32,000 nucleotides of DNA from Candidatus Iainarchaeum sp. (GTDB lineage: Archaea; Iainarchaeota; Iainarchaeia; Iainarchaeales; 0-14-0-20-30-16). Positions 5,541 to 31,892 of this stretch are shown in pieces. Numbering within the stretch: position 1 is the first letter of the stretch; each line of letters begins with the position of its first letter. The notes under the pieces are model-generated. The model was not told where the DNA came from. It saw only the letters and a program-made list of their open reading frames with translations, and made no database searches. The stretch is from positions 1-32,000 of the forward strand of contig JAQTTP010000005.1 in NCBI GenBank assembly GCA_028710695.1. The letters are read 5' to 3'. The position numbers and the translations under genes are program-made.

Positions 5541-8500
5541 TAATTATTTACATCGCCATAATCCAATTCTGAGAATCTTTTTGAGAACTCAACTAAAAAT
5601 TGCTCTGGATCTTTTATTGTAGTACCAAATATCTTTATAAATCGTTCATGAGCTTTTCTAAAACGATTTATATCCAAAAAATTACTGTATGTTAACAAGT
5701 TTTCTATTGCATTTGTAACAGAAAGTGGTCCATACTTCCAATTCTCATTATAATAAAGGTCATCAAAAGGCCTTATTGCTTCAATATATTTTGCTAACAA
5801 CTTATAATGCTCTGTAGCCCCATATTTTTGTTTTATATGTGCTATTGAAAATTGTTTTATTACTGAATCATTAGCAGCAAAACCTTTTTCTTTCAAGATT
5901 GGATCGTCTTTGAGACCATACGGGTCAGAATAGCGCAAATCCAAAACTCTTTGTCTATAAGCCAATACGTCATCATAACTTAATTTTGCAGGATCAATTG
6001 ACTTTAATTCCTCAACACCCATTTCCTTAAAACGATCTACTGGCTTCTCTGGTGGTTTTGGTAATTCATGTACTGTTCCAGAACCGGCCTTTTTTTCTCC
6101 ACCTACTGGTGCAAGGGGATTTGGAGGAGCATTATCTCTTATCTTCAAAAATTCCATTATTCTTGCTCTATCTTGTTTGAAGAATTCTTGTGGATATTTT
6201 TCCATCTTGCCATCTTGATAAAGTTGCTCCATTGTTTTAAAAAAATCAAATATTTTTTCTCTATGACTCTCCAAAAGTTCTGGAAAGTTTTTTGCAAAAG
6301 CAAATGATATATTTGTTATGACAGACGCTAAACTATGATATTCTCTACTTAAGCCCAGCCCTCTTTCTTTTTTTGCAATACCATTTAATCTCTCTGGAAG
6401 CAAAATTAAGACATTAACAATACCATCATTCAAAACCTTTTTCTTTTGTTCAGGGTTTAAATACTTGCTTTCTTGTACGCCCCTAACCCAGTCCTCTGAA
6501 CTTGCAATCCCTGGCAGTCCAATTTTTCCTTCTCTGTAAACTATCTCCTTATAGTGATTAACTGTTTTATCATCTACAAGCTCTGCTATTACTGCCTTTG
6601 CTCTTTTAAAATCAGCATCAGGAATTCCATAAAGATTATCTGGATCTGCTGCTTGTGGCTTAGGTGCTTCCTTTAGCTTTTTTTCTTCTGTCTTTTTTAC
6701 ATCTACTACAGGCTTAGGAGGTTCTTCTTTCTCGCCTTCCGGAGCCGTGTGTTCTGGATGTTTTTCATAATAATCTAGTAATATTGGCAGTGCAGTCACT
6801 CTAGACATATCGGGGGTAATGCCCACTGGCTTTAAGGTCTCAGCATTTACTTCATATTTACCAAACATTTTCTTTAAAATTACTTGATATACTTGCCTAC
6901 ACATAAGTTGTGCTAGATCTAATGCTTTGCCCGCATGCAAAGAATCAATCTTTGCAAGATCATCTTTATTCTGCTCTCTTATAATCTCAAAACTACGATC
7001 ATCAATACCTTGTTCCTCAAGGAATGCTAATGCTCTTTTTGCCAGATCAACAAGTTCTACTGTTTTCTTTGCTGTGTATTGACCTGCTTGTGCAGACCAA
7101 GTTTTATATCTTGGATCTTCTGATTTTTTCTCTTCACCTTTTTTTGTTCTTTCTACAAGACGGTCTAGCCCATCTTTTGCAATACTATTTTCTGGATCCA
7201 ATTCTAACACTTTTCTATATGCTGCTATTGCCTCTTTATCTTTTCTTTGACTTCTTAATGCAGTAGCATAGTTGATCCAAGTGCTTATATCTTTTGGATT
7301 AAGATCTAATACTTTTCTAAAATTTACCTCTGCATCAGCATATTTCCCCAAATTTAATAACTGTACTCCTTCTGATTTAAGAAGCCCACGTTTGATATTT
7401 TCTTTTTCTTTTTCTTTTTCTTCTACTTCAGCTTCTGCTAGTCTTCTATCAAGTTCTTTATCAGACATTTCTGGAAGGCTTTGTGTATGTTCACCAGGCA
7501 AAGAAGGTAATCCATCTTCTTCATAATCTGTTACTTTTAACTCTTGCCTTGGTTCTGGCCCTGGTTGTGGTGCAGGCAATAGTAATGGTTTAGCCCCTTC
7601 AGGAAGTTGTGCTACGGGTTTAGGCTCTGCTAATTTTCTATCTTCTTTTGGAGGCTCTAATCTTTTGGGTTCTTCTTGCTTTTTTTCAGGAAGTTTTTTA
7701 TTTCCCTCTTTTTTCACGCCTTCGGGTTTACCCAAAGTATCAATTAAAACAGTTTTTCCTGGTTTCTCTTCTGCACCTTCCGGAGTCAAGTCTTCAAATT
7801 CTTCTAAGATACGCCTTTTCAACATAGACATACGTCTTGTTCTTTCAGCACCCACAGGCAGTGCAAGTATAGATTCGAAGTTGTGTCTTAAATGTCCTAC
7901 TACTTTTGTAGATAAACCTGCTTGTTCTAGTTCGCCCACTTGGGCCAAAGGTTCAGCACTCTTTGGAGTTAATTTGCCTTTTGGAGGTTCTTTTATTTCT
8001 TTTTCTGGCAGTTTAGGCCTTATTTGTTTTTTATCATCTTTAGGCGGTTCAGGGCCTTTCTTTCCTGCTTCTAGTTCTTTATGCCCAAGAAATTCTCTTA
8101 TCACTCTAATCTTATCATCTGACCAGGTTATTTTTTTCTCAGCTCTAACTTTTTCTAATTCTGCAAAAAGCTGCCTCATTCTTGCTTTATAAGGTTCCAA
8201 AAGTTCTGGAACATTTCTTATAATACCTTCCAAGGCATTATATGCTCCCTCAAATATATGGTCCCTACTTAGGTGAGCAGGAGATTCTTTTATGTGTTCT
8301 AAGTCTTCAGTTACAAAATACAGATTTTCGTTAATACCATTTTTCAGAACTTGTTCTTTTTGTTCTGGAGTTAGATATTTACTGCTTTTTACGCCTTTGA
8401 CCCATTCATCAGCCGATGCTGCCACTAATTCTCCGATTTGACCCTTTAAATTCTGTTTCTCATTAAAAGATTCTCGGCTCCCAAGAGAATTCAAAGCTTT

Positions 8501-11497
8501 AATTATATCTTTAACTCTTTTCAGATCTGCTTCTGGAATTCCATAAGGATTACTAGGATCTAAAGGTCTCTTCTCTTCTTTTGGAGCCTCTGCCTTAACT
8601 TCTTCTTTTTTAGGGCCCTTTCCTTTCTCTTCCTTCTTGATTCCAGCGATCTCTCTTGCTCTTTTTAATTTTTTCTCCATTGCAGTATGAAATCCATTAC
8701 TTTCTTCCATAGCGGCTACTCTTTCTGGAGTATTCCAAGGATCTCGTTTATCTATTAAAGGATAATAGTCTGGCATTCTTTTATCTAATTGTTCTGCATA
8801 TTCTGCTGCTTGTTCTTTACTTAAAACTTCAATATTCAAACCATATAAGTCTTCATCAGCTAAATTCTTCATCTTTCCTGGTTTAAGACCTTCTTGTAAA
8901 CGTTCATAATATTCCATAAGCTTTGGCAAGGAATCTGTAGACATATAAGATTTTCCTTCTGAAACCGGAATACCAAGTTCCCTCAAAAATGCATTGTCTG
9001 TAACTCCCTCTCTTACAAATACTGTTGGCCTTAACTTTGCAATTTCTGTAAGAAGTGCAAGATTAAGTGTCCCAATAATATTATAGTGGGCATCCACCAC
9101 ATCGCCTTTAAAGCCAGATTTTTCAAGCTCTTCTAAAACCAATTCTTTCTTTAATACTGAACCTTTTATTGGAAGAGTTAGCCCGTGTTTATCAAAGAAA
9201 TCAAGAGCCTTGTAATTTAAGTCTACTATTGAGGTTATGTCTGCTCTTCTTTGCTGTTCTTTTGCGTCTAGTTCTTTTTTCTCAAATTCTTTCTTTTCTA
9301 AATCTTCTTTTTTAGTTCTATCTTTTTCTTCTAGATCTTTTGTTGCTTCAACTAGATCTTTTAATTCATGCAAACGTTGTCCTAAAAATCTAGATTTTTT
9401 TGTATTCTCAAAATGAGCTCTCAGTGGATGATCTTTATCTGCACCAGCCAAATTTTCTTCTATCTGATCAGAATACTTTCTTTCCAGTTCTCCTACATCT
9501 GCTTTTAAATTATTATAAAGGTTAACAACATCTCTTTCACTAAATCTGAACCCCGGAACTGTTCTTCTCAATTTTTTCTTTATTCCTTCTAGTTCTTTTT
9601 TGTCCTTACCGTCATAAATTCCCAGCTCAAGTAAAGCATCTACAAACTCTTCAATTCTTTCAACACGCTTTTCTTTAAGGGGTTTTTTGCCTTTTTCAGC
9701 AAGCAACAGTACTCTTTCAAGCTCTTGGACTCGCTCAAAAGGGGTCATTTTTTTATTTACTTGCTTCATTATGTTTGAATACATATACTCTGCCTTATTT
9801 GGATTTTGGCCAGTATAATGTTGCTGTGCAAGATAATCTTTCAATTTAGAATCTAAGCCCTCAGACACTTGATCAATTGCTTTATTAACTTCAGATTCTA
9901 GAGCCTCTAATTCTCCTGGGCCTGCTTCATTAAACTTTTTCTCTAAAGCTTTTGTTTTCATATGTCGTGATAAGAATCCTATTTTTCGTTCTATTCTTTT
10001 GCTTCTATTTTCTTGCACTTCCACAGGCGGTGCTGGCCCAGTCTTTTTTTCTTCTGGTTGTTTTTTCTCTTCTGGCCCATCTACGCCTGGCTCTTCCTTA
10101 AGGTCTGGCATCCTTACAACACCATCCTTATCCGGTTTTAAGAACCAATCCTCATCAAAATCCTGATCTCTGTCTCTTTCTTGCCTTTTTATATCTCCAA
10201 ATTCTTTTGGACCTTCTCTCTCTTTTTTTATTCTCGCCTTCAATTTAATTATTAAAGAATTAACCTCTGCCAACCTATTTGTTAAACTCAAGTTTTTGTG
10301 CTCTTGAGCAATTTTTTTCAATCTTTTCTTGCCTTCTTCCGGACCTTCAAAATCTAATACTAACTCCTCAAGTTCTTGATACATTCTCTTCTCGATTGTT
10401 TTTATTCTACTATAAATGTCTCTGGCTCTTTTTTGCATTACTTCAACATCACGTATTTCTCTTGTTTCTTCTCTTTCTCTTTGTAGCTTTGCTTTTGCTT
10501 CTTCTGTTTGTGGTCCAAAGATTTCAAGGAGTCCAATACCTTCAAAAACATCCTTTGCTGCGTTGTGTAATTCACCAGGCCCTTGTTTTAAACGCGGTAC
10601 CTTTACAATTTCACCATTAATAATTTCATTTTCATATTCATATTCTTCTTGTCTTGGCTGTTCCCTCACCCTTCTTCTTTCTGGCTCTTCTCTTTTTGCT
10701 TCTGGGCCTTTTTTACCCTTGCCATATAACTGTTCATATTCTTCTGGTCTTATTCTCCTAAGTACTTCAGGAGGAATAGTTTGTATAGGGGACCTTTCTT
10801 TTCTTTGTCTTGCTGGGCCTTTATATCTTAGGTTTCCTTCAGCATCAAGTTCTAATTCTTGTGGGCCCTCTCTTGCAGGGGCTTTTCTTCTTACTCTCCC
10901 CTCTTCGTCAATATCTACTTCTACCTCTCCAGGTTGTGGCTCCAATAATTCATCTATTTCCCTTTTCCGCCTGCTGCCTGGTTCTTCCATTCTTTCACGA
11001 GCGCGTGCAGGAGCAGGGGGCTCTCTTGGACCAACTGGTGGCTTTCTTTCTGGCTCTACTCTTTCAGGTTCTCTTCTCTCTGGCCTTGGCTCTGGAAGGT
11101 AATGCTTACTATTAACATCATTTATTCTTTCTAGGATTTCTCTTGCCAATACTTTGTCGTGAGCTAAAACACTTTTGAAAGTATCCAATGCAATTTTTCT
11201 TTGTTCTTGGTTGCCTGTTCTAAAATGTAAAATTAGGTTTACTAGTGGGTCTCTTTCTTTAAGTTCAACAAGTTTTTTTACGTAAAATGCAAAGAACTTT
11301 GGTCTTTTTTCAGCATAAAATCTAACTAGGTTTCCAATATTGTGTTCTAAACCGTGCCTTTCAAGCAGGGTTTTGTGGGCAGTTCCACTCTTTTCGTGTA
11401 AATCTCTAAAAACAGATCCAAAATGATGATTTTCAAGTCGTCTCGGCTCAGCAGGCATAGAAGTCACTCCATTGTAGGCATATAAACATAGATGCAC
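5540..11497 (-). CDS. giant charge-rich repeat-containing protein of unknown function with a central TPR pair
   Basis: A single uninterrupted 5.96-kb ORF of 1985 aa. The more likely start is ATG 11458 (MPAEPRR..., 1972 aa), which has GGAGTGA 6 nt upstream. By eye I see no TM helix, no signal peptide and no recognisable catalytic motif. Only the TPR-like repeats are recognisable. Strong coding character: all antisense ORFs are S/L/F-rich mirror artefacts. Confidence 0.9.
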   Translation of the reverse strand: MHLCLYAYNGVTSMPAEPRRLENHHFGSVFRDLHEKSGTAHKTLLERHGLEHNIGNLVRFYAEKRPKFFAFYVKKLVELKERDPLVNLILHFRTGNQEQRKIALDTFKSVLAHDKVLAREILERINDVNSKHYLPEPRPERREPERVEPERKPPVGPREPPAPARARERMEEPGSRRKREIDELLEPQPGEVEVDIDEEGRVRRKAPAREGPQELELDAEGNLRYKGPARQRKERSPIQTIPPEVLRRIRPEEYEQLYGKGKKGPEAKREEPERRRVREQPRQEEYEYENEIINGEIVKVPRLKQGPGELHNAAKDVFEGIGLLEIFGPQTEEAKAKLQREREETREIRDVEVMQKRARDIYSRIKTIEKRMYQELEELVLDFEGPEEGKKRLKKIAQEHKNLSLTNRLAEVNSLIIKLKARIKKEREGPKEFGDIKRQERDRDQDFDEDWFLKPDKDGVVRMPDLKEEPGVDGPEEKKQPEEKKTGPAPPVEVQENRSKRIERKIGFLSRHMKTKALEKKFNEAGPGELEALESEVNKAIDQVSEGLDSKLKDYLAQQHYTGQNPNKAEYMYSNIMKQVNKKMTPFERVQELERVLLLAEKGKKPLKEKRVERIEEFVDALLELGIYDGKDKKELEGIKKKLRRTVPGFRFSERDVVNLYNNLKADVGELERKYSDQIEENLAGADKDHPLRAHFENTKKSRFLGQRLHELKDLVEATKDLEEKDRTKKEDLEKKEFEKKELDAKEQQRRADITSIVDLNYKALDFFDKHGLTLPIKGSVLKKELVLEELEKSGFKGDVVDAHYNIIGTLNLALLTEIAKLRPTVFVREGVTDNAFLRELGIPVSEGKSYMSTDSLPKLMEYYERLQEGLKPGKMKNLADEDLYGLNIEVLSKEQAAEYAEQLDKRMPDYYPLIDKRDPWNTPERVAAMEESNGFHTAMEKKLKRAREIAGIKKEEKGKGPKKEEVKAEAPKEEKRPLDPSNPYGIPEADLKRVKDIIKALNSLGSRESFNEKQNLKGQIGELVAASADEWVKGVKSSKYLTPEQKEQVLKNGINENLYFVTEDLEHIKESPAHLSRDHIFEGAYNALEGIIRNVPELLEPYKARMRQLFAELEKVRAEKKITWSDDKIRVIREFLGHKELEAGKKGPEPPKDDKKQIRPKLPEKEIKEPPKGKLTPKSAEPLAQVGELEQAGLSTKVVGHLRHNFESILALPVGAERTRRMSMLKRRILEEFEDLTPEGAEEKPGKTVLIDTLGKPEGVKKEGNKKLPEKKQEEPKRLEPPKEDRKLAEPKPVAQLPEGAKPLLLPAPQPGPEPRQELKVTDYEEDGLPSLPGEHTQSLPEMSDKELDRRLAEAEVEEKEKEKENIKRGLLKSEGVQLLNLGKYADAEVNFRKVLDLNPKDISTWINYATALRSQRKDKEAIAAYRKVLELDPENSIAKDGLDRLVERTKKGEEKKSEDPRYKTWSAQAGQYTAKKTVELVDLAKRALAFLEEQGIDDRSFEIIREQNKDDLAKIDSLHAGKALDLAQLMCRQVYQVILKKMFGKYEVNAETLKPVGITPDMSRVTALPILLDYYEKHPEHTAPEGEKEEPPKPVVDVKKTEEKKLKEAPKPQAADPDNLYGIPDADFKRAKAVIAELVDDKTVNHYKEIVYREGKIGLPGIASSEDWVRGVQESKYLNPEQKKKVLNDGIVNVLILLPERLNGIAKKERGLGLSREYHSLASVITNISFAFAKNFPELLESHREKIFDFFKTMEQLYQDGKMEKYPQEFFKQDRARIMEFLKIRDNAPPNPLAPVGGEKKAGSGTVHELPKPPEKPVDRFKEMGVEELKSIDPAKLSYDDVLAYRQRVLDLRYSDPYGLKDDPILKEKGFAANDSVIKQFSIAHIKQKYGATEHYKLLAKYIEAIRPFDDLYYNENWKYGPLSVTNAIENLLTYSNFLDINRFRKAHERFIKIFGTTIKDPEQFLVEFSKRFSELDYGDVNN
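6135..7050 (-). repeat. intragenic protein-level repeat, unit 2 (part B about 7050..6750, part A about 6646..6135)
   Basis: Part A2 reads DPDNLYGIPDADFKRAKAVIAEL...SSEDWVRGVQESKYLNPEQKKKVLNDGI...LSRE...FPELLE...RARIMEFL. Part B2 reads RALAFLEEQG...LPILLDYYEKH. The YGIP core is also similar at DNA level: ggaattccataa occurs in both copies. Confidence 0.6.
7151..7352 (-). other. two TPR repeats inside the giant protein
   Basis: The sequence GKYADAEVNFRKVLDLNPKDISTWINYATALRSQRKDKEAIAAYRKVLELDPENSIAKDGLDRLVE fits the TPR consensus of two 34-aa units (A/Y..A...F.kaLelnP). Confidence 0.7.
8085..9215 (-). repeat. intragenic protein-level repeat, unit 1 (part B about 9215..8890, part A about 8560..8085)
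   Basis: Part A1 reads DPSNPYGIPEADLKRVKDIIKAL...SADEWVKGVKSSKYLTPEQKEQVLKNGI...LSRD...VPELLE...IRVIREFL. It aligns colinearly with part A2 in unit 2. Part B1 reads KALDFFDKHG...LPKLMEYYERL and is weakly similar to B2. Confidence 0.6.
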
Positions 11498-11555
11498 AAA
11501 TATAAAAATATATTTATCTTATTTTATATATCTTTATAAGATAAAGAAAGGAATT

Positions 11556-11861
11556 TTGAAGAGGTTACTGAAGGGATCAAAAATGATGTGGGAATATTGT
11601 GCAAATTGTGGAAGTATAAGTTTAAAGAAAGTTGACGGTTTAATGAAACAATGTAACAAATGCGGATGGAGAGGAGTTCCAGATAAAGCAGATATGGAAC
11701 ATATAAATAAAAAAGCAAGAGCAAATATTGGGAATCCAAGAATGGTTGCTGCTGCAGAAAGAAGAGCAAGTGAACCTGTAGATCCACATGCTCCAAAAGA
11801 GAGCACAAAGGATTTAAAAGAAAGACTAAAGAAACAAAGCGATGATTTCGATATCTTTTAA
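11556..11861 (+). CDS. small zinc-ribbon protein, unknown function
   Basis: The product contains MMWEYCANCGSISLKKVDGLMKQCNKCGWRG (CxxC-x15-CxxC), then a basic or disordered stretch and an acidic-aromatic end, QSDDFDIF. The true start is probably the internal ATG ATG at 11583 (92 aa). It is followed by a clean terminator. Confidence 0.7.
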   Translation: MKRLLKGSKMMWEYCANCGSISLKKVDGLMKQCNKCGWRGVPDKADMEHINKKARANIGNPRMVAAAERRASEPVDPHAPKESTKDLKERLKKQSDDFDIF

Positions 11862-11862
11862 A

Positions 11863-11894
11863 AGTAGGAGAATCCTACTCTTTTTTTATTTTTT
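11863..11894 (+). terminator. intrinsic-terminator-like hairpin plus T-run
   Basis: AGTAGGA-GAA-TCCTACT (11863..11879) is followed by c ttttttt a tttttt. It begins 2 nt after the stop codon of the Zn-ribbon gene. Confidence 0.55.
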
Positions 11895-11910
11895 CAAAAA
11901 TAAGAAAGTA

Positions 11911-11920
11911 ATATATTTAC
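11911..11920 (+). promoter_or_regulatory. TATA-box-like element positioned for a leaderless methyltransferase mRNA
   Basis: The element atatatttac is centred about 24 nt upstream of ATG 11939. No Shine-Dalgarno lies in between. The spacing fits an archaeal TATA at about -26 from a transcription start at or near the ATG. Confidence 0.3.
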
Positions 11921-11938
11921 AATAAAATAATTATACTT

Positions 11939-12727
11939 ATGGAATTAACTAGTTATTATAGAAAAACAAAGCCTACAGAAAAGGAATTAAATAAATTCAA
12001 AATAACTTATGATAAAAAATCACAAAATAGGCCCGCGTGGATAAAAATTGATGGCTTAGAAGGAAAAGTAAAATTTATAGAGATTCATTTAGGAAAAAAA
12101 GGCAGGAATGGTAGAAGAAAACAATTTTATAGAACTTATCTCCCACTTGGATTGTTTTTACCAATAGATTATACTTCTGAAGAAATGTCCAAATATTACG
12201 ATAAATTTGCAGAAACTTATGATAAAGAAATTAAAGAAACTGGATATAATACAGGGGCAGCAAAGTTTTTAATAGGCAAAATAAAAAAATATGTAAACAA
12301 AAATCCGGCCATTTTAGACTTAGGGGCGGGAACAGGCATTGTAAATGAAGTATATGCTCTTGCTAGCTTCAAAAATATGACTCTTGTAGATTTTTCAAAA
12401 GGAATGCTAGATGACGCAAAGAAAAAACCTGCCTTAAGGGGCTGTAAGTTTATTAGAGCAGATATTAGAAAACTAAACCTTAAAGGCAAATATGATTTAA
12501 TTACTAGCCATTTTTCGTTAGGAAATTATCGTTATATCAATGAGGAAGATGTAGATAAGATCTTAAAAAAATTCAAAAAAAATTTAACACAAAAAGGCAT
12601 TATTGCAATAATTGGGCACTTTAACTTAGAGCTATTTAGAAAACATTTTAAAGAATTGAAGTCAGGAATCTACACTTTAAATAAATCAAAGAAACTTTTT
12701 GCAGATTATTTTATTGGAAGAAAATAA
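11939..12727 (+). CDS. class I SAM-dependent methyltransferase with an N-terminal extension of about 85 aa
   Basis: It carries motif I ILDLGAGTGIV, an upstream YYDKFAETYD, a post-I acidic residue (LVDFS) and later DLITSHFSL. The N-terminal part is basic (GKKGRNGRRKQFYRTY). Substrate is unknown. Confidence 0.85.
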   Translation: MELTSYYRKTKPTEKELNKFKITYDKKSQNRPAWIKIDGLEGKVKFIEIHLGKKGRNGRRKQFYRTYLPLGLFLPIDYTSEEMSKYYDKFAETYDKEIKETGYNTGAAKFLIGKIKKYVNKNPAILDLGAGTGIVNEVYALASFKNMTLVDFSKGMLDDAKKKPALRGCKFIRADIRKLNLKGKYDLITSHFSLGNYRYINEEDVDKILKKFKKNLTQKGIIAIIGHFNLELFRKHFKELKSGIYTLNKSKKLFADYFIGRK

Positions 12728-21932: not shown

Positions 21933-22871
21933 ATGGTTGAATATATCAAGGATGTTATTTGGAAGAACGGCCAGAAAGTAAGCGACTTTTTAGAGCAGAT
22001 GAAAGCCAATGGATATCAAAGCATAGAGCTCTATAAAGCAGCAGAAATAATCTACAAGATGAAAAAAGAGAAAGCAAAGATCTTTCTAACATTTACATCT
22101 AACTTAGGAACATCAGGATTAAGAGGGCTTTTTGCACAGCTAATAAAGCTTGGACTTGCAGACATAATTGTTACAACTGCTGGGGCTTTAGAAGAAGATA
22201 TTATGAAATCAATAGGAGAAAAATTCTTAATAACTAGATTTAATGCAGATGATATTGCATTACACGAAAAAGGCCATAACAGAGTAGGAAATATTGCAAT
22301 AACTACAGACACCTACCAAAAATTTGAAGGCTTTATAATTCCAATTTTAGAAAAAATAGCAAAAGAAAAAAAATCTTTAACAACTTCTGAATTAATTTAT
22401 GAAATTGGCAAAAACCTAAAAGATAATAATTCTTTTATAAGACAGGCATATCTAAAGAAAGTTCCAATACACTGCCCATCAATTATTGATGGCTCAATTG
22501 GATTCCAATTATATTTCGTGAAACAAAAGCATCCAGAATTTAACATAGATATTATTAGCGATTTCAAAGAAACAATGTTTTATACAACCCAGGACGACAG
22601 AAAAGGAGTAATTGCTTTAGGTGGAGGAGTTTCAAAGCACTTTGCAATTCTATCCTCCCTTATAAGTGGTGGAATGGACTATGCAGTATATATCACCACT
22701 GCAAATGCAACTTCCGGCAGTGCATCAGGAGCAACAACAAGCGAGGCAAAGAGTTGGGGAAAAATAAAAGATGATGCAGACTCAGTTACAGTAAAGGGGG
22801 ATGCAACTGTTCTATTTCCACTTGTTATGTTCTCAGTTTTAGACAGACTTAAAAAAGAAGGGGAAATATAA
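21933..22871 (+). CDS. dys: deoxyhypusine synthase
   Basis: 312 aa. It has TTAGALEEDIMK (the GG-x-EED-type NAD/spermidine site) and SEAKSWGKIK, matching the EA-x-SWGKI motif that carries the catalytic Lys. It starts 4 nt after the ileS stop. Confidence 0.9.
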   Translation: MVEYIKDVIWKNGQKVSDFLEQMKANGYQSIELYKAAEIIYKMKKEKAKIFLTFTSNLGTSGLRGLFAQLIKLGLADIIVTTAGALEEDIMKSIGEKFLITRFNADDIALHEKGHNRVGNIAITTDTYQKFEGFIIPILEKIAKEKKSLTTSELIYEIGKNLKDNNSFIRQAYLKKVPIHCPSIIDGSIGFQLYFVKQKHPEFNIDIISDFKETMFYTTQDDRKGVIALGGGVSKHFAILSSLISGGMDYAVYITTANATSGSASGATTSEAKSWGKIKDDADSVTVKGDATVLFPLVMFSVLDRLKKEGEI

Positions 22872-23887
22872 TGGCTTATTTTGAATTAAGCAAAAAGGTT
22901 CTAAAAGAATATTATAAAAAGCTTGAGCCTATTGCAGACATTATTGCTTATAATTTAAAATCAAATGAAGTTGTGGGCAAAGTTCTAGAAGCAGAGACAG
23001 GCTGCCAATTTACAATCAGCTCTATAAACTCAATAAATACAATAAAAGACAAAAAAAGAATAATTTATATTCTGCAAGGTGAAGAAAAAAAAGAAGTTGA
23101 AAAGATCTTCAACTCAGGAATCCACTCTTTTATTGTAGATAACCCAAATGACTTGAAAAATGTTGTAACTCTAAACAAAAAAGTAACTTTATTTTTAAGA
23201 ATGAAATTCAAAGAACACACAGTTTATACTGGAAAATATTTTGTGTACGGCTTCAGCTGGCAAGATACAAACAAGTTAATCAAAGAGCTTTCAAAGAACA
23301 AAAACATTGAGCTTGGGATTCACTTCCACAGAAAAACACAGAATATTGGAGAATGGAATTTAGCAGAAGAGTTCTTTGAAGCAATCGAGGAAGAAAACTT
23401 CAAGCACATAAAAATAATAAACATCGGTGGCGGAATCCCAATTGAATATGTAAATTCAATGCCAGACACAAAAGCAATTATGGCAAGCATAAAAGATTTT
23501 AAGACAAAGTTAAACAAACTTGGAGTAAAGCTTATGGTAGAGCCAGGAAGGTTTTTAGCAGCCCCCGGCATAAGACTTCATTCAAAAATAAAAAACATTT
23601 ACGACAACAACATAATTCTTGACTGTTCAATTTACAATGCCTATTTTGATACTTACCTATTCCACATGCGTTTGATGGTATTAGATGAAAACAAAGGCAA
23701 AGAAAAATATCTTCTAAAAGGAATGTCTCCTGACTCTTTAGATATATTCAGATATTCCATAATGCTTCCAAAAAAGAAAATAGGAGATTACATTACATTC
23801 CTAAATGCGGGAGCATATAATTTTTATTCAGAATTCAACAATATGGACAAAATTGAAACAAAAATAGTAAATGATTTCAAGAAGTGA
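22871..23887 (+). CDS. PLP-dependent decarboxylase, alanine-racemase-fold Orn/Arg/DAP decarboxylase family (minimal, divergent)
   Basis: 338 aa with colinear family motifs: AYNLKSN (PLP-Lys at K30), HFHRKTQ, NIGGGIP, VEPGRFL, LNAGAYNF. The GPTCDxxD position reads GMSPDSLD. The start ATG shares a base with the dys stop (TAATG). Confidence 0.8.
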   Translation: MAYFELSKKVLKEYYKKLEPIADIIAYNLKSNEVVGKVLEAETGCQFTISSINSINTIKDKKRIIYILQGEEKKEVEKIFNSGIHSFIVDNPNDLKNVVTLNKKVTLFLRMKFKEHTVYTGKYFVYGFSWQDTNKLIKELSKNKNIELGIHFHRKTQNIGEWNLAEEFFEAIEEENFKHIKIINIGGGIPIEYVNSMPDTKAIMASIKDFKTKLNKLGVKLMVEPGRFLAAPGIRLHSKIKNIYDNNIILDCSIYNAYFDTYLFHMRLMVLDENKGKEKYLLKGMSPDSLDIFRYSIMLPKKKIGDYITFLNAGAYNFYSEFNNMDKIETKIVNDFKK

Positions 23888-24723
23888 TTCCTATGTCTAG
23901 CGATTCCATGCTTTATCTAAAGAAACAAAACTTGATCCCATACACAAACAAGAATGCAAAAATTGGAATACTGGGAATACCTTTTGATTCAACATCAATA
24001 GAAGTTCCGGGCCAGAGATTTGGGCCAAGGGACATAAGAGAGCAATTTTCAAAACTTTACGGCTATGACTTTGAAACAAAGCAAAACATATATGAAAAAA
24101 TTGATGATTTAGGAGACATTGACGCTGTGCACGGAAGCTTTGAACTTACAGCAGAAAGAATAAAAGACACGATCGATCATCTAGATAAGAAGCCAATATT
24201 CTTAGGCGGAGAACATTCAATAACCCACGCAATAGTAAAATGCCTAAAGCCCGACGTTTTAGTCATATTTGATGCTCACGCAGATCTTTTTGATACTTAT
24301 CAAGGAGAAAAATATTCACATATTTCTTATTTACACAAAATTATGTCTGAAAAATTAGTAAAAAAAGCATATGTGTTCGGCTGCAGAGCATACACACAAG
24401 AAGAATTGGAGTTTGCAAAGAAATTCAAAGTGGTTTTAGTAAACCCAAAAGATGTAAAAAAAGAAGTTAAGAAAATAAAGAAACAGAACATCTACCTTTC
24501 TGTTGATCTAGATGTTTTAGAATTCAATCTTGCAATGGGCACAGGTACTCCAGAATTCGGTGGCTTATCATTAAACGATCTTTTGAGCCACATAAAAACA
24601 GTATTATCTAATAACAAAGTAGTTGGGGCAGACATAGTAGAACTTAACCCACTAATAGATTCTCAAAAGACAACCACTTTCTGTGCTGCCCAGATTTTGA
24701 AAGAAATAATACTACACATGTAG
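23884..24723 (+). CDS. speB: agmatinase / ureohydrolase (arginase family)
   Basis: 279 aa with the Mn-ligand motifs LGGEHSITH, FDAHADL, SVDLDVL and VGADIVELNP..D. The GTG start overlaps the upstream stop (GTGA). ATG 23893 is an alternative start. Confidence 0.85.
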   Translation: MIPMSSDSMLYLKKQNLIPYTNKNAKIGILGIPFDSTSIEVPGQRFGPRDIREQFSKLYGYDFETKQNIYEKIDDLGDIDAVHGSFELTAERIKDTIDHLDKKPIFLGGEHSITHAIVKCLKPDVLVIFDAHADLFDTYQGEKYSHISYLHKIMSEKLVKKAYVFGCRAYTQEELEFAKKFKVVLVNPKDVKKEVKKIKKQNIYLSVDLDVLEFNLAMGTGTPEFGGLSLNDLLSHIKTVLSNNKVVGADIVELNPLIDSQKTTTFCAAQILKEIILHM

Positions 24724-26125: not shown

Positions 26126-29100
26126 CTACCAAGGTTTGGGCTTGAACATATTAGAGTAACATAATTCTACCCCGTGGTCAGCCATGATTGCTTCAAGTTT
26201 TTGATTATACAAAACATACCAATCTTTTATGTTTACCACAACATTAGACATAAGGTCATAGCCATCTGGATCTATAGATTCAGGATAAAATGCAACAGCA
26301 CAAATATTCATATTTTCATCAAGTTCTGAAAAATTTGTCTTGTCAAAGTACACATAGTTTATAAACTCCTCAATTAAGCTACCCGCCATCTGTTCAGTAT
26401 AGTTTTTCGGAGGATCAGAAGCAGTAACATAAAACTCAAAATTACCATATATATCAGAGCCTATTGACAGAGCAAAATATTTGTCGTCATAAAGATCTGA
26501 TTCTTTTAAACACATATCTGAAACATATTCTTTCTTTCCATTTACTTCGATTACATCGCTTCCACAAAAATTATTAACTCCATAACAAAATTCTGAACCA
26601 AATACCTTTGCTCCTTTTTTACAATATTTGGGCTGAACAATATAGTCCGGAGAAATATCCTGAATTAAATCCCCAAGGATAACAGAAATAGAGCTGGCAC
26701 CACATTTATTTTGTGGTTCATAATAAATATCATATCCATCCCCATAGGTAATAAGTCCAGATTCATTTTTACCCACGCTTGGGTCAGTTGGACCACTACA
26801 AAAGTTTTTGTCTTGGTCATATTCTACACAGGCACCATTTTTACAAGTTGCGTTTTCATCATTCAAAATTTCAGAGCAATCTACTTTCTTATAATCTACA
26901 ACATTATTTTTACAAATCTGTTCTTGTAACTTTGGCTTAGATTCATAACCACAGACATCGTTATTTATATGATTTATTCCAAATTCATCATTACTTATCA
27001 CAAGAGACTTCTTAAAATAATTTTCATCATCAACATCTTCACAGGCCAGGTCCACTGAAGACATACAAACTCCAAAACTAGAGTTACATATCTGGCCAGA
27101 TTCACAGGCATCTTCTACTATTTCATACTTGTTTCCATTGCACACATACTTTGTTGCTTGAGGAAATCCAAATTCTGTTTTACACCCATTATTATACTTT
27201 GTTTGTATTCCATAAATATCAGTATAATATACTGCATAATTTGTCTGACTACAGGATTCTAATAATGGACTAGGAGCAACACAAGATCCATCAATACACT
27301 TTTCTTGTCCAACACAACTTATTTTTTTATCGCCCATTGTTTTATCATCAACACAATAATAGGTTACTATTTCAAAATCACTATTACATTTAGGTTTAAA
27401 AGAGTCTGTTTGGCCAAACCAATCTGTATACAGAACAGAGGTGTTTTTGTCCACACACTCTTGTAGATCTGGGTTTTTTTCTACACAGGCTCCATAGTCA
27501 TTATAATTCTCAACACAAAAATAATTGTCCCCATAAATATTACAGTTTATTGTTGCAGCCTCAAAATTCGTATTGTTACAATAGGTCTCAACAAGAGTAG
27601 TAGAATCTAGGCAAATATCTTTTTCAAAATATGAAAACGGCCCGATTTTATATTTTACTTCCCCAGGAACAAATGGGTCTAACCCACCATCATTGATATT
27701 ATCACAGGTTTTTACTTCTGGCTGTGGAACAACACAAGCACCATATTCACATACCATGCCTTCGGAATTACAATCATAAGTTATGTAATTAAAATCTAGA
27801 CCACTACATATTGCTTCAGATAGTATTGTCCCCCCCCAACACCCATCATTTGCATAGGTTGGAGCAAAATAATCTTTCCCGTCATAAGTATAGATGTTAT
27901 TTCCAGTAACGCTTTTTGAAGTATAATAGTCAACTACATTGGTATCTACATCACACTCAAATTTTTTGTCAGCCATTACACACGAACCATCTAAACAAAT
28001 ACTATCACAAAAGTTCATTGAAAAATCGGGTATTACACCCTCACAAAAATAATCTTTTTTAAGAAACAAAGATTCACAATAATCTGGCAGAATGTGTTCT
28101 TCACCTTTTAAGTCATTAAATACTACTTCACCATACTCGCTATTACCCCAAAAGTCACCGGGTGCAGAATCATCACAATCCAAATTTGTTGTGCTTTCCC
28201 CTGCTTCTAATTCAACACACATTCCACCTTCACATTTTTTATCTATAGCATAACAAGGTACTGTTTTTTCACCCAAACTAGGTTCACCAGAATCAAGTTT
28301 ACAATATGATTCGTCAAGTATAAAGTTATTCCAATTACATGAATCTTCTGAAACAGTAAGCCCAGCCCCTTTTAGTATTGCTTTAGAATACTCAAAAGGA
28401 GCAGGATATAAAAATCCGCCGTCAGGATCATAACAAGTGAGTTTACAGGTTGTGTTTTCATCTAAAAAGTATGAATCTCCAGTATAAACTGATTTTTCTA
28501 AATAATTATTTGTTTCATCTGTTTCTTCAACCATAAGACCTGTATCAAGATCTATTTTAACAGATATGTTTTCAGATAATCCTGCAAAAAAAGCAAGAGT
28601 ATTCATTTTTTGGGGCTCATTTATTTCAATACAAGAATCCGCCTCAATTAGTCCATATTTTCCAACACTATAATTGAGCTTTATGCTTGTCCCCTTACTT
28701 ATCACGCTGACCTGGATCTCAAAATCTGTTGTTATTTTACCAGCCCCTTTATTACAAACTTTAAAAGAAACATAATTCAAACAATTTTCACTTTTTGCAA
28801 TATCTTTTATTTCACCAACATAAAGATCTACTTCTTGTTTTTCAATTTTACAGTCGGAGTCACAGCCATCACTATCTTTGTCATTTCCATCATCACATTC
28901 TTCGCTATCTTTAATGAACCCATCTCCGCACTTTTTTTGTATACAAGCACCAGATTTACATAAATAATTTGTAGGACATTTTACCTCTTTAGATGCCACT
29001 ACTTTCTTTGAAACATCACAATAGGCTTCACTTAGATTATCTCCACCTTCTTCCAAACACGAATCTATTAACCAATTACAACCTTTTGGAACATTATATT

Positions 29101-29488
29101 TGCTTCCGTCTGGGTTATACATCGTAATTTCATTTAAATTGTAACTTGTTGTTACACCTGATTTATAGATGCTTTGATTGTCAGTATCTTTACAAACTGC
29201 AGTAATAGCTCCAATTCTACTAACGGTGGGCACCAGCTGTTTTTTTAGTTCACTACAAAGACTTACAGCATATGCTTCTTGATAATTTGATACGTTAATT
29301 AAAGGCTGATTTTCATTAATTGTTTTTATTTTATTGTGATCAATAACTGGAAGATATAGAAGTGCAGATTTGTTGCTCCATTGAGGGATTACAAAAATTG
29401 ATGCCACAAAACAAGCAACAACTAAAAAAAACAAAACCCACAATAAATACTTTTTTTTACTTACACTGTGCATCTTCACAAATATCAC
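26126..29488 (-). CDS. large cysteine-rich surface protein: signal anchor, Myxococcus-type Cys repeat, CARDB-like domain, about 8 Cys modules and a Cys-poor C-terminal domain
   Basis: 1120-aa ORF. The likely start is ATG 29473 (MHSVSKKKYLLWVLFFLVVACFVASIF), which is embedded in the last codons of the upstream paralogue. It has many Cys residues. Domain evidence is given in the separate entries. Confidence 0.85.
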   Translation of the reverse strand: MIFVKMHSVSKKKYLLWVLFFLVVACFVASIFVIPQWSNKSALLYLPVIDHNKIKTINENQPLINVSNYQEAYAVSLCSELKKQLVPTVSRIGAITAVCKDTDNQSIYKSGVTTSYNLNEITMYNPDGSKYNVPKGCNWLIDSCLEEGGDNLSEAYCDVSKKVVASKEVKCPTNYLCKSGACIQKKCGDGFIKDSEECDDGNDKDSDGCDSDCKIEKQEVDLYVGEIKDIAKSENCLNYVSFKVCNKGAGKITTDFEIQVSVISKGTSIKLNYSVGKYGLIEADSCIEINEPQKMNTLAFFAGLSENISVKIDLDTGLMVEETDETNNYLEKSVYTGDSYFLDENTTCKLTCYDPDGGFLYPAPFEYSKAILKGAGLTVSEDSCNWNNFILDESYCKLDSGEPSLGEKTVPCYAIDKKCEGGMCVELEAGESTTNLDCDDSAPGDFWGNSEYGEVVFNDLKGEEHILPDYCESLFLKKDYFCEGVIPDFSMNFCDSICLDGSCVMADKKFECDVDTNVVDYYTSKSVTGNNIYTYDGKDYFAPTYANDGCWGGTILSEAICSGLDFNYITYDCNSEGMVCEYGACVVPQPEVKTCDNINDGGLDPFVPGEVKYKIGPFSYFEKDICLDSTTLVETYCNNTNFEAATINCNIYGDNYFCVENYNDYGACVEKNPDLQECVDKNTSVLYTDWFGQTDSFKPKCNSDFEIVTYYCVDDKTMGDKKISCVGQEKCIDGSCVAPSPLLESCSQTNYAVYYTDIYGIQTKYNNGCKTEFGFPQATKYVCNGNKYEIVEDACESGQICNSSFGVCMSSVDLACEDVDDENYFKKSLVISNDEFGINHINNDVCGYESKPKLQEQICKNNVVDYKKVDCSEILNDENATCKNGACVEYDQDKNFCSGPTDPSVGKNESGLITYGDGYDIYYEPQNKCGASSISVILGDLIQDISPDYIVQPKYCKKGAKVFGSEFCYGVNNFCGSDVIEVNGKKEYVSDMCLKESDLYDDKYFALSIGSDIYGNFEFYVTASDPPKNYTEQMAGSLIEEFINYVYFDKTNFSELDENMNICAVAFYPESIDPDGYDLMSNVVVNIKDWYVLYNQKLEAIMADHGVELCYSNMFKPKPW
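28484..28828 (-). other. CARDB-like (cell-adhesion-related) Ig-fold domain
   Basis: DLYVGEI...FKVCNKGAGK...FEIQVSV...VKIDLDTGLMVEETDETNNY follows the CARDB pattern: DL.v..i...V.N.G......f.v.l......v.vD..n.v.E.nE.NN. Confidence 0.55.
28838..28930 (-). other. Myxococcus-type cysteine-rich repeat (CGNG..E.CDDGN...GDGC...C)
   Basis: CGDGFIKDSEECDDGNDKDSDGCDSDCKIEK (aa 187-217 of the 1120-aa protein) matches the consensus of the cysteine-rich repeat first described in Myxococcus surface proteins. Confidence 0.6.
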
Positions 29489-31862
29489 CTTGTTCTGTAC
29501 AATCTGTTAATTTGTTATCCACATATGGACCTCCACAAATCCATTCATGAAGATAATTCGAGCTAAATACTTTGCCGCCGACATCATTAACACAACCATT
29601 TTCAAAGTATTCTATTTCTCCTTCGCCTTCACAGTGAGTCAATCCTTTAGGATCTTCTAGGCACCAATCTTCATCAAGAGAATAACATTCTCCTTTGTAA
29701 CAATATTCTCCATCTTTAATTTCACCTGGCGCAGGGACATATTCCTCTTCAGGATTCGCGGGATCAATACAAGCCCCAAAACTACACACTAGGCCTTCCT
29801 TTGAACAATCATACTTTTCATATTTTGCAGTATTATTGTCACAAGAATATTCCAATAGGATTGTATTGCTTAAACACTTATCCTGATAATAATTTTTAGT
29901 ACCTAAAACATTGGTATACTTTATTGCTGTACTGTCATAGTATTCTCCAGATAATTCAGAGTATTCATCCACAACACAGGTTTCTTGTTGTGGCACAAGT
30001 GTTGAACAGGCACCATTTACACAAGTCTTTCCATCTTTAGAACAATCTTTTTCTAAATAAACAGAACCCTCTTGACAATCCACACTATCATATGAGCCCT
30101 CTTTACAATTATATCCCGCATTACAACTAAATTCATACAAAGTACCCATTGGCAAACAAAGGGGGTTATCTTGATTATCAATATCTGAATCACATTGCCC
30201 ACCATTTTGAACAAGCCCACAATGATCTTCAAACTTTTTAGATTCTGATCCTACATTTGTCTCCCCCAATACAGACAAGTCACATATCAAATCAAGGGTT
30301 ATTTCCCCACTGGAGAATTTGTTTGTATTTTCCCCGTCCAGATCACTACAATTTACCTCAGTATCACAATCTTCATCTTCATTAATGCATTTTCCATCAT
30401 AACAGGCACAATCTTTAGTCCAAGAAGTCAATATTGGAGTATCAGATTGGCAAGAATAATCCTTTAACTTTTTACTATAAAGAACTTCCTCTTCATCATC
30501 ATTAACACACACTGATTTAACTTCGTGTTCTATTCCATCCACGTCCCAATACTTTACAACATCACCAAGATCTTTACAATCAAATCCAATGTAATCTTTT
30601 TCAACACAGGCACCATTTTCACAAGCCATGTTTAACATATAACAAGGAATTTCCAAAGACTTTGATTCATATCCGCTTTGGGTTTTATCACATGTTTGTT
30701 CATATAGGATAACACCGCCCACAGAACAGAAATCCTCTAATTCATATTCATATCCACCCGAATTAAGGCCAATAATTTTTGAACTTTCCAAATAGGCCTT
30801 ACCACCAAGATAAGCATCTAAGTCAGTACAAGTAACTTCACAAACAGAGCCATTATTCAAATAAGTATCTCCCGAATATATATTTGAACTTTCAAATACA
30901 TTTTCTTCATCTTTTTCAGCAATTACATTTTCTGTATCAAGAACAATAGATACATCATAAACTTCCTTTAGCCCAACCCCAAACTGAGCTAAATCTAACT
31001 TTTTTGGATCCTCTAAAGTAACACATCCAGATCCGTATCCGCCATACTTTCCTTGCAGATAAGTAAGCTTTCTTTCAACATCATTTATTTTTATTAAGAT
31101 ATTAAAATCATCTAATACAGGCATATTGCCCACATTACAAATATCAAAAGTTAAGGAGTTAATACATTTTTCCTGATGTGGCACAAGATGTATTTTTTGA
31201 ACAACCAAGTCTGGTGCTTTTTCTATTTTACAAGTCTGGCTACAACCATCTCCTGATTTTACACCGCCATCATCGCATTGCTCACCATCATCTACAACCC
31301 CATTTCCGCAGAGCCCTGGAATACAAGTGCCTTTATAACAAATATAACTATCTCCGTAGTCTTTACAGTCTTTTGAAATATATGTCGGCCAATATTCAAG
31401 AAATACGTATTTTTTTTCTACGCCATCTTCAATTATTTTTTTACAATTAGCTTCATAAAGAACAGAACTACTTTTACAATAATCCGCTATTACTTTACAG
31501 CCCTTTTTTGCAGTAGTTAACCCATTGTCATAATAATTAAAGTCTTTAAGAGCATAACCAAAGGCCTTGTCTTTGCTCAAATAGCTTGTGCCATTATCTT
31601 TACAGGCAAAGGAAACATTATTTTCCTCTGCTTTTTCTTGAAGATATGTACAAAAAGAATCATCTGCAACAGTTACATCAGAAACTATTCTACTTATTGC
31701 AATTGGATTAGTTACTTTTGTGAGGTCTTTCATCTTATTGTGATCTATAACTGGAATAAAAATATAGCTTTGTTTTACAGTAAAAGAACTTAAAAATCCG
31801 AAGGCAAATATTCCTACAACTACAAGCAAAATAAGCAAGAACCCAAAATAGCCTTTATGCAA
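29457..31862 (-). CDS. large cysteine-rich surface protein, paralogue of 26126..29488
   Basis: 801-aa ORF with a TTG start ((M)HKGYFGFLLILLVVVGIFAFGFL). It is colinear with the downstream paralogue through the first 420 aa or so: TM helix, PVIDHNK, CGNG...CDDG repeat, CARDB-like domain, then the first Cys modules. Confidence 0.85.
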   Translation of the reverse strand: MHKGYFGFLLILLVVVGIFAFGFLSSFTVKQSYIFIPVIDHNKMKDLTKVTNPIAISRIVSDVTVADDSFCTYLQEKAEENNVSFACKDNGTSYLSKDKAFGYALKDFNYYDNGLTTAKKGCKVIADYCKSSSVLYEANCKKIIEDGVEKKYVFLEYWPTYISKDCKDYGDSYICYKGTCIPGLCGNGVVDDGEQCDDGGVKSGDGCSQTCKIEKAPDLVVQKIHLVPHQEKCINSLTFDICNVGNMPVLDDFNILIKINDVERKLTYLQGKYGGYGSGCVTLEDPKKLDLAQFGVGLKEVYDVSIVLDTENVIAEKDEENVFESSNIYSGDTYLNNGSVCEVTCTDLDAYLGGKAYLESSKIIGLNSGGYEYELEDFCSVGGVILYEQTCDKTQSGYESKSLEIPCYMLNMACENGACVEKDYIGFDCKDLGDVVKYWDVDGIEHEVKSVCVNDDEEEVLYSKKLKDYSCQSDTPILTSWTKDCACYDGKCINEDEDCDTEVNCSDLDGENTNKFSSGEITLDLICDLSVLGETNVGSESKKFEDHCGLVQNGGQCDSDIDNQDNPLCLPMGTLYEFSCNAGYNCKEGSYDSVDCQEGSVYLEKDCSKDGKTCVNGACSTLVPQQETCVVDEYSELSGEYYDSTAIKYTNVLGTKNYYQDKCLSNTILLEYSCDNNTAKYEKYDCSKEGLVCSFGACIDPANPEEEYVPAPGEIKDGEYCYKGECYSLDEDWCLEDPKGLTHCEGEGEIEYFENGCVNDVGGKVFSSNYLHEWICGGPYVDNKLTDCTEQGDICEDAQCK
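30876..31211 (-). other. CARDB-like Ig-fold domain
   Basis: DLVVQKIHL...FDICNVGNMPV...FNILIKI...VSIVLDTENVIAEKDEENV follows the same pattern and sits at the same position as in the paralogue. Confidence 0.55.
31218..31310 (-). other. Myxococcus-type cysteine-rich repeat
   Basis: CGNGVVDDGEQCDDGGVKSGDGCSQTCKIEK (aa 185-215 of the 801-aa protein). Confidence 0.6.
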
Positions 31863-31868
31863 AAATAA

Positions 31869-31889
31869 TCCCTCGTATAATATGAGGGA
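31869..31889 (-). terminator. hairpin plus T-run between the upstream partial gene and the 801-aa gene; its 3' arm doubles as a possible SD
   Basis: On the minus strand, TCCCTC-ATATTATAC-GAGGGA is followed by TTATTTT and then immediately by the TTG start at 31862. The GAGGGA arm lies 7 nt upstream of that start. Confidence 0.3.
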
Positions 31890-31892
31890 ATA

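Follow-up and report, generated by a model that had tools for sequence, protein, structure and literature searches.

Overlapping genes for paired cysteine-rich paralogs, candidate surface adhesins, in a Candidatus Iainarchaeum genome

We analyzed a 32,000-nucleotide (nt) stretch of DNA from Candidatus Iainarchaeum sp. (assembly GCA_028710695.1, contig JAQTTP010000005.1, positions 1 to 32,000 of the forward strand; hereafter the window). Near its end, two adjacent minus-strand genes, A and B, overlap by a few codons and encode large cysteine-rich paralogs built mostly from one repeated six-cysteine module. The same arrangement, with the same 17-nt overlap, occurs at all four loci where we found the pair. 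We consider it somewhat better than even (roughly 0.55) that A and B form a co-expressed, N-terminally anchored, disulfide-stabilized, paired surface stalk that acts as an adhesin. A first-pass annotation, made by reading the letters without database searches, had proposed a cell-surface or host-attachment apparatus, and such a role is plausible from the sequence. Attachment to other cells is the presumed way of life of DPANN archaea, and to our knowledge almost nothing is known of the molecules that make the contact; the A/B pair is a concrete and compact candidate.

Results and discussion

The two genes and their junction

The open reading frames (ORFs) of the pair and the elements that adjoin them are as follows (coordinates are those of the window; aa, amino acids).

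29457-31862, minus strand: gene A, 801 aa, TTG start
26126-29473, minus strand: gene B, 1115 aa counted from the ATG at 29473
29457-29473, minus strand: A/B overlap of 17 nt, ATGCACAGTGTAAGTAA, with the start of B inside the final codons of A and B in frame +1
31863-31892, minus strand: leader of A, 30 nt, between the gatE stop and the TTG

Both ORFs of the tandem pair were confirmed, and the 17-nt overlap can be read at the junction, GAA G[ATG CAC AGT GTA AGT AA]. The start codon of B is ambiguous, with overlaps of 17, 26 or 32-38 nt depending on the codon chosen. For instance, an in-frame GTG at 29488 gives an ORF at 26126-29488 that encodes 1120 aa and overlaps A by 32 nt. The first-pass annotation had called the two genes almost certainly co-translated. 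The 17-nt geometry found at four of four pair loci (the window; contig C3 of the same genome; and loci L002 and L003 of other genomes) speaks for this, but the start of B leaves room for doubt and we infer, more cautiously, that A and B may be translationally coupled.

The TTG of A lies 30 nt past the stop of the upstream gatE. Gene callers choose a later Met, which yields 758 aa; the first Met after the TTG is 43 codons on, already beyond the hydrophobic helix described below. Two observations support the TTG: aligned orthologs of A start, with M-N-K-G-Y-F-G, right where A does, and the ortholog in L002 likewise uses TTG behind the same leader. The leader consists of a hairpin (CCCTC-N9-GAGGG, with a Shine-Dalgarno-like 3' arm), then GAGGGATTATTTT, then the TTG start (window 31863-31892; L002 4022-4051). 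Its 3' half, GAGGGATTATTTTTTG, is identical in L002, so the leader is kept between genomes whose A proteins share just 41% identity. It may be a recombination boundary or a regulatory element. A TATA-like AAATATATATA lies upstream of the leader; a scan for sigma-70 promoters and terminators gave background levels, under a model that is not applicable to archaea.

Adjacent paralogous genes within a metagenome-assembled genome (MAG) could be an artefact, either a mis-assembled or collapsed repeat or one gene split by a frameshift error. We consider this extremely improbable. When run SRR22315508 is assembled independently (Logan), gatE, A, B and part of a downstream MFS transporter gene lie in the same order, with 99.99% identity along 11,403 bases. 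Long DNA repeats between A and B are absent (the longest measure 48 nt, with 71% identity, and 29 nt, with 90%), and the same junction occurs at the three other loci, which come from different samples. The collapsed repeat that the first-pass annotation had named as its own possible refutation is thereby averted. Fusion of A and B through a +1 frameshift was also rejected: B opens with its own anchor helix, predicted N-in/C-out, and a read-through fusion would misplace the cysteine-rich body of B across the membrane. A chimeric bin was rejected as an explanation for the two pairs found in this genome; gatE and the PibD-like peptidase are each single-copy, and bin contamination is 0.67%.

The archaeal host and small genome suggested earlier were borne out. 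The window encodes a deoxyhypusine synthase, the assembly measures 0.9 Mb, and its nearest named relative is a Candidatus Diapherotrites MAG. We take the host to be a DPANN archaeon of the Diapherotrites/Iainarchaeota type.

Shared N-terminal architecture

A and B are 32% identical over 545 aa (BLASTP, E 8e-53), colinear from residue 1, which confirms the paralogy and the common N-terminal plan noted at first reading. Beyond this match, BLASTP finds weaker module-to-module similarities. The parts of the two proteins are listed below from the N-terminus outward; all lie on the minus strand. HMM denotes hidden Markov model, and M0 a module copy at the N-terminal end.

31782-31850: A residues 5-27, anchor helix, sole hydrophobic segment, after M-H-K-G
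29387-29449: B residues 9-29, anchor helix, sole hydrophobic segment, after K-K-K
31734-31754: A residues 37-43, juxtamembrane motif P-V-I-D-H-N-K (PVIDHNK; DNA repeat D4)
29330-29350: B residues 42-48, PVIDHNK
31317-31610: A residues 85-182, M0, degenerate module (module HMM E 1.8e-3)
28937-29200: B residues 92-179, M0, degenerate module (module HMM E 3e-7)
31218-31316: A residues 183-215, Myxococcus-type repeat (TIGR02232 38.8 bits)
28838-28936: B residues 180-212, Myxococcus-type repeat, DUF4215 (TIGR02232 36.4 bits, PF13948 31.6 bits)
30858-31214: A residues 217-335, CARDB-like beta domain (PF07705 11.3 bits)
28469-28828: B residues 216-335, CARDB-like beta domain (PF07705 14.4 bits)
29460-30836: A residues 343-801, module region: M1 (343-421), M2 (427-494), an irregular Cys-rich stretch (495-626), M5 (627-700) and M6 (724-801)
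26822-28441: B residues 345-884, modules M1-M7 (module HMM E 1e-13 to 1e-20 each)
26129-26818: B residues 886-1115, distal end, with a weakly matching eighth module (890-974), then a terminal domain poor in Cys

The N-terminal anchor helix held up well. Each protein has a single hydrophobic segment, with a Kyte-Doolittle 19-residue mean of 2.9-3.0, while every other segment of A and B stays at or below 1.6. By the positive-inside rule, lysines in front of a helix relate to an N-in orientation, so the Lys-preceded helix is predicted to be an N-in/C-out anchor or an uncleaved signal. The PVIDHNK motif was likewise found in both proteins, and it is invariant across the alignment of B proteins.

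The first-pass annotation had placed a Cys-containing domain of about 130 aa after the motif. Cysteines are present there, but the region is not a separate domain: the module HMM identifies it as a degenerate copy of the module described below, with E-values of 3e-7 to 7e-8 in B proteins. The Myxococcus-type repeat that follows was confirmed, as the TIGR02232 (myxo_disulf_rpt) scores of both proteins exceed the cut-off of 20.8 bits. For PF13948 (DUF4215, cut-off 27 bits), B is above and A, at 17.8 bits, below. Like the Myxococcus repeat proteins of these families, A and B each carry the signature CG[ND]G..E.CDDGN...GDGC...C. They differ in having a single copy, where typical members have tandem arrays, in that the rest of each protein is unrelated, and in their archaeal host. 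We know of no function for this repeat.

CARDB (PF07705) is a cell adhesion related domain found in bacteria. The claim of such a domain in A and B was upheld in part. Both window proteins score below the cut-off of 22.7 bits, but in the colinear paralogs encoded on C3 the homologous region of B passes (26.4 bits) and that of A falls just short (21.7 bits). Nearly the whole profile is aligned, from positions 1-3 to 96-100 of 101, over a domain of about 110 residues. We thus call the domain CARDB-like: it resembles the domain of CARDB surface proteins end to end, and differs in that only the C3 B protein passes the curated cut-off.

Both proteins are acidic, with net charges of -78 (A) and -90 (B), and rich in cysteine (55 and 67 residues). 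Outside the helix, the number of cysteines is odd in all four A proteins: 55 in the window (29457-31862), and 51 in each of L004, the C3 locus (9577-11964), L002 (4052-6439) and L003 (6724-9108). At least one cysteine of A must therefore be unpaired within its chain, and it could bond intermolecularly. The count in the C3 B protein is odd as well (61), and that of the window B ectodomain is 66.

The six-cysteine module

The arrays of Cys-rich modules that make up most of A and B belong to one repeat family of about 70 residues. We derived the unit by cutting the proteins at a recurring C..G.C motif and aligning the pieces (28 instances, alignment A2). The resulting pattern is C-x-D ... G ... 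D-x-C ... L-x-E-x2-C ... C ... C-x2-G-x-C. Five of the cysteines are invariant, and the sixth is present in at least 90% of the 28 instances. Counting the degenerate N-terminal copies, the module HMM matches five stretches in the window A and nine in the window B; elsewhere in the genome it matched only the other two A/B proteins.

No Pfam or NCBIfam model covers the module. It is not a diverged Myxococcus repeat, a candidate ruled out by an hhalign probability of 0.3%. AlphaFold2 predicts a compact, mostly beta structure for module M7 of B when given the 28-instance alignment (mean pLDDT 92.6, pTM 0.76). A sequence-profile search of the PDB with the module gave 0 hits, and a Foldseek search of the PDB with the model found no relative (best E 1.7, TM 0.34). 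Judging from this model, the unit may represent a new protein fold. We put this forward as a hypothesis, because fold searches cope poorly with small disulfide-rich domains and the structures searched were those of the PDB.

A profile search with the module retrieved 2,396 representative proteins (50%-identity clusters) at E<=0.001, of which 91 reach E<=1e-30. These relatives have up to 25 copies and are up to 3,760 aa long. All matches with a named organism are DPANN archaea, namely MAGs labelled Micrarchaeota, Anstonellales, Ca. Bilamarchaeum dharawalense or Woesearchaeota, and nearly all are annotated as hypothetical. Within the phylum, the module occurs in 45 of the 215 genomes searched. 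The DPANN multi-module proteins contain, like A and B, the six-cysteine unit of about 70 residues, each protein having between 3 and 25 of them; they differ in having other N-termini, without the head of PVIDHNK, M0, Myxococcus-type repeat and CARDB-like domain. Several carry DUF4215 too, and some have an N-terminal Laminin_G_3 lectin-like domain (P0032, P0033). In seven module-rich relatives, Pfam gave no match on the module itself. The combination of a bacterial-style repeat, CARDB and a novel module, earlier called unusual for an archaeon, is therefore less unusual than stated. If the six-cysteine unit were made a domain family of its own, thousands of giant DPANN proteins now called hypothetical would gain an annotation.

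The full architecture has a much narrower distribution. Among 5.8 billion clustered proteins, A has only three other full-length relatives, and all remaining matches cover the Myxococcus-type repeat alone (about 35 residues). The complete A/B plan was found in 4 of 41 related genomes, all in the host's own GTDB family (f1). We found no description of the A/B family in the literature on DPANN archaea with DUF4215, cysteine-rich or surface proteins.

B is longer than A by about 300 residues, and its distal end has no Pfam match. Searched against 150 other genomes of the order, the last 230 residues match nothing at E<=0.001, and they do not match the C3 B protein either; they are a lineage-unique orphan. 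A word-indexed protein search with B residues 340-1115 returned nothing; the distant module relatives surfaced only with the HMM profile. The first-pass annotation had described a Cys-poor end of about 190 aa that A lacks. The end is indeed specific to B, but the stretch without regular modules is longer (about 885-1115) and only its last 145 residues or so are Cys-poor.

The sister pair and turnover at the locus

The second A/B pair of this genome lies on contig C3 (95576-101064). It shares the A/B order, the 17-nt overlap, the domain plan and the module with the window pair, and differs in its leader, its ATG start, its position after pilin genes rather than gatE, and the C-terminus of its B protein. 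Identity between the two pairs is 42% for A and 33% for B. Orthologs of the C3 pair, at 60-70% identity, are found in L002 (JGI) and L003 (ENA); we refer to these three pairs as type 1. The overlap reads ATGAATGTGTCAAGTAA in all three type-1 loci, and it is kept although the pair types share only about 33-42% amino-acid identity, a divergence at which synonymous sites are saturated. When the shared 430 residues are placed in a tree by maximum likelihood, all A proteins group together (99/99), as do all B proteins (83/83). The split between A and B thus predates the duplication of the pair, and pairs were duplicated or inherited whole. Modular cysteine-rich surface proteins of DPANN archaea are a known kind; what is new here is the common 17-nt overlap at four loci, a pair that duplicates as a unit, divergent cargo at a conserved locus, the size of the module family, and a high-confidence module model without a solved neighbor.

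In the window, the genes upstream of the pair are gatE and then a UDP-GlcNAc 2-epimerase, a UDP-sugar dehydrogenase and a polysaccharide flippase, and the gene downstream is the MFS transporter. In the congener (genome G002, locus L002) the pair likewise follows gatE. The two loci compare as follows.

gatE, window against L002: 89.5% identical
Leader, window against L002: 3' half and TTG start conserved
A of L002: 41% identical to the window A, 69% to the C3 A
B of L002: 39% identical to the window B, 60% to the C3 B

With gatE and the leader conserved and A and B divergent, the locus is the same and its cargo differs. Two histories fit this pattern. The ancestor may have had two types of pair, with one supplanting the other beside gatE in the lineage of G002, or the copy at the gatE site of the present genome may have diverged very fast after duplication. 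Under both, the sequence comparisons indicate that A and B evolve much faster than the neighboring genes.

This turnover bears on whether A and B make up the cell wall, as general structural proteins of an S-layer-like envelope, rather than serve as specific adhesins. They are large, acidic, N-terminally anchored and predicted to be exported; a glycan-synthesis cluster adjoins the window pair, and there are two pairs in a 0.9 Mb genome. Still, we find a wall role improbable. An essential wall protein should be more widespread than 4 of 41 related genomes in a single GTDB family, and the divergence of A at a conserved locus is extreme (41% identity against 89.5% for the neighboring gene). Moreover, A shows no enrichment of N-glycosylation sequons, with 0.6 per 100 aa compared to 0.71 for the genome as a whole, and neither protein matches an S-layer family in Pfam or NCBIfam.

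Relation to pilins

The C3 and L003 pairs come directly after four or five pilin-like genes and a PibD-type peptidase (Peptidase_A24/Arc_PepC). This raises another possibility, namely that A and B are pilin-like subunits whose leader (M-H-K-G or M-N-K-G) is cut by the peptidase, and that they serve as pilus-borne adhesins, built into a type IV pilus or sitting at its tip. Bacterial modular pilins and pilus-tip adhesins are known. Pilin leaders reportedly follow a FlaFind-type pattern (Szabo and colleagues, 2007), in which a short charged leader closes with [KR]-[GA] and a hydrophobic stretch follows at once. The window A (M-H-K-G-Y-F-G) has the K-G, and A-type and type-1 B proteins in general start with K-G, an aromatic residue and about 20 hydrophobic residues. 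A thus resembles a modular pilin in its short basic leader, its hydrophobic stretch and its big ectodomain, and the sister pair in lying at a pilin/PibD cluster. Furthermore, the helix region is the most conserved part of A (67% identity between the window and C3 proteins over residues 1-60, against 35-50% elsewhere), as in the core helices of pilins. The relatives of A and B in genomes G004 and G001 also lie near pilin-like genes, and the pilin operon of G004 encodes small proteins that start with M-K-G-F-F.

Other evidence makes a pilin-like identity unlikely, although we rank it first among the alternatives to the adhesive stalk. The window B protein (K-K-K-Y-L-L) has no Gly or Ala at -1, and the G004 relative is the same in this respect. 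The pilin-like ORFs beside the C3 peptidase all have KGQ or RGQ and a Glu at +5. In A and B this signature is missing: the +1 residue is Tyr or Phe, with no Gln, and there is no Glu at +5. There are no pilin genes near the window pair, whose upstream neighbor is gatE, and the pilin loci of G002 and G001 contain no such pair, their pilin-like genes running directly into CDC48. Finally, ectodomains of 90-125 kDa are hard to fit as repeating subunits. Proteins of archaea that carry class III signal peptides are processed by PibD (reviewed in PMC6098224).

Two other genes near the C3 pair are worth recording. Between the pilin-like genes and A, at C3:94970-95488 (L004 8971-9489, plus strand), lies a gene whose 172-aa product combines an N-terminal helix with a Cys-rich ectodomain; the product has no Pfam match, and the gene is absent from the same place in L003, G002 and G001. 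About 7 kb upstream of the pair, a 153-aa ORF (L004 2259-2720, minus strand) matches the exosortase/archaeosortase family (Exosortase_EpsH, E 3.9e-8). A and B themselves lack a C-terminal sorting signal.

Possible functions of the pair

We favor the reading of A and B as an adhesive surface stalk. Both would be type II (N-in, C-out) membrane-anchored ectoproteins expressed together from overlapping genes. From the membrane outward, the order would be helix, PVIDHNK, degenerate module, Myxococcus-type repeat, CARDB-like beta-sandwich and chain of six-cysteine modules, and the lineage-unique end of B would form the membrane-distal tip, a candidate ligand-binding end. A surface location is suggested by the lone Lys-preceded N-terminal helix, the acidity, the high cysteine content, and a DsbA-like protein encoded in the genome. 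The latter (ORF 1477-3180 of L025, which is C15:104398-107889; minus strand) is 567 aa long; its N-terminus is rich in Lys, it has a single transmembrane helix, and it ends in a DsbA-like thioredoxin domain with CPWC. It is a candidate extracytoplasmic disulfide oxidoreductase that could form the disulfides of A and B. VKOR-type disulfide machinery was also considered; no homolog was found in the genome, and the DsbA-like protein was found instead. Export, topology, disulfide formation, A-B association and adhesive function are each inferred.

Several points weigh against a paired adhesive stalk. Neither Pfam nor NCBIfam finds a recognized binding domain (lectin, integrin-like or other) in A or B. 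The full-length AlphaFold2 model of A, from a seven-row alignment, is poor (pLDDT 57.7, pTM 0.32) and was set aside; it supports neither a rod shape nor the fold assigned to the CARDB-like domain. The sequon density of A, given above, is no higher than the genome average. Association of A with B is suggested by gene linkage alone, and pairing is not obligatory in the wider family, as G001 and G004, of the same GTDB family, have single, unpaired relatives.

A bolder and more tentative version of the adhesin is a heteromeric receptor with which an episymbiotic archaeon recognizes its host and which diversifies rapidly, with A and B as its two chains and cassettes being exchanged. Here, the conserved helix of A and the PVIDHNK segment would pair the chains at the membrane, and the longer B would present the lineage-unique tip. 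Pairs would be swapped or moved whole, cassette-fashion, with one fixed landing site behind gatE and the other behind the pilin operon, altering host or surface specificity, and the six-cysteine unit would be a new fold forming the stalk of a DPANN-wide adhesin superfamily. We put the probability of this version well below even.

The pair might also have a different extracellular role, as a decoy or shield against viruses or as a binder or inhibitor of secreted host proteins, with an arms race driving its evolution. Rapid divergence, cassette-like relocation and the orphan tip of B would all suit such a role, and one protein that clusters with a module-bearing protein has the NCBI annotation Kazal-type inhibitor domain-containing. 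Against it, Pfam searches of A, B and the seven module-rich relatives turned up no domain of an inhibitor, toxin or enzyme. The evidence does not separate this role from adhesion, and we rate it a low-probability alternative to the adhesive stalk.

Other features of the window and genome

A giant, largely unannotated ORF of 1985 aa occupies window positions 5540-11497 (minus strand); its Pfam matches are limited to one or two TPR repeats at residues 1380-1440 or thereabouts. At 21933-24723 (plus strand), the deoxyhypusine synthase gene stands in a row with a pyridoxal phosphate-dependent Orn/Arg-type decarboxylase gene and an arginase-family (agmatinase-like) gene, a compact polyamine/hypusine cluster.

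Elsewhere in the genome, three large Cys-rich ORFs, all on the minus strand, are without the six-cysteine module: C3:63548-65893 (782 aa, 7.7% Cys), C13:16710-19397 (896 aa, 4.7%) and C19:89984-91441 (486 aa, 6.6%). These may represent other families of surface proteins.

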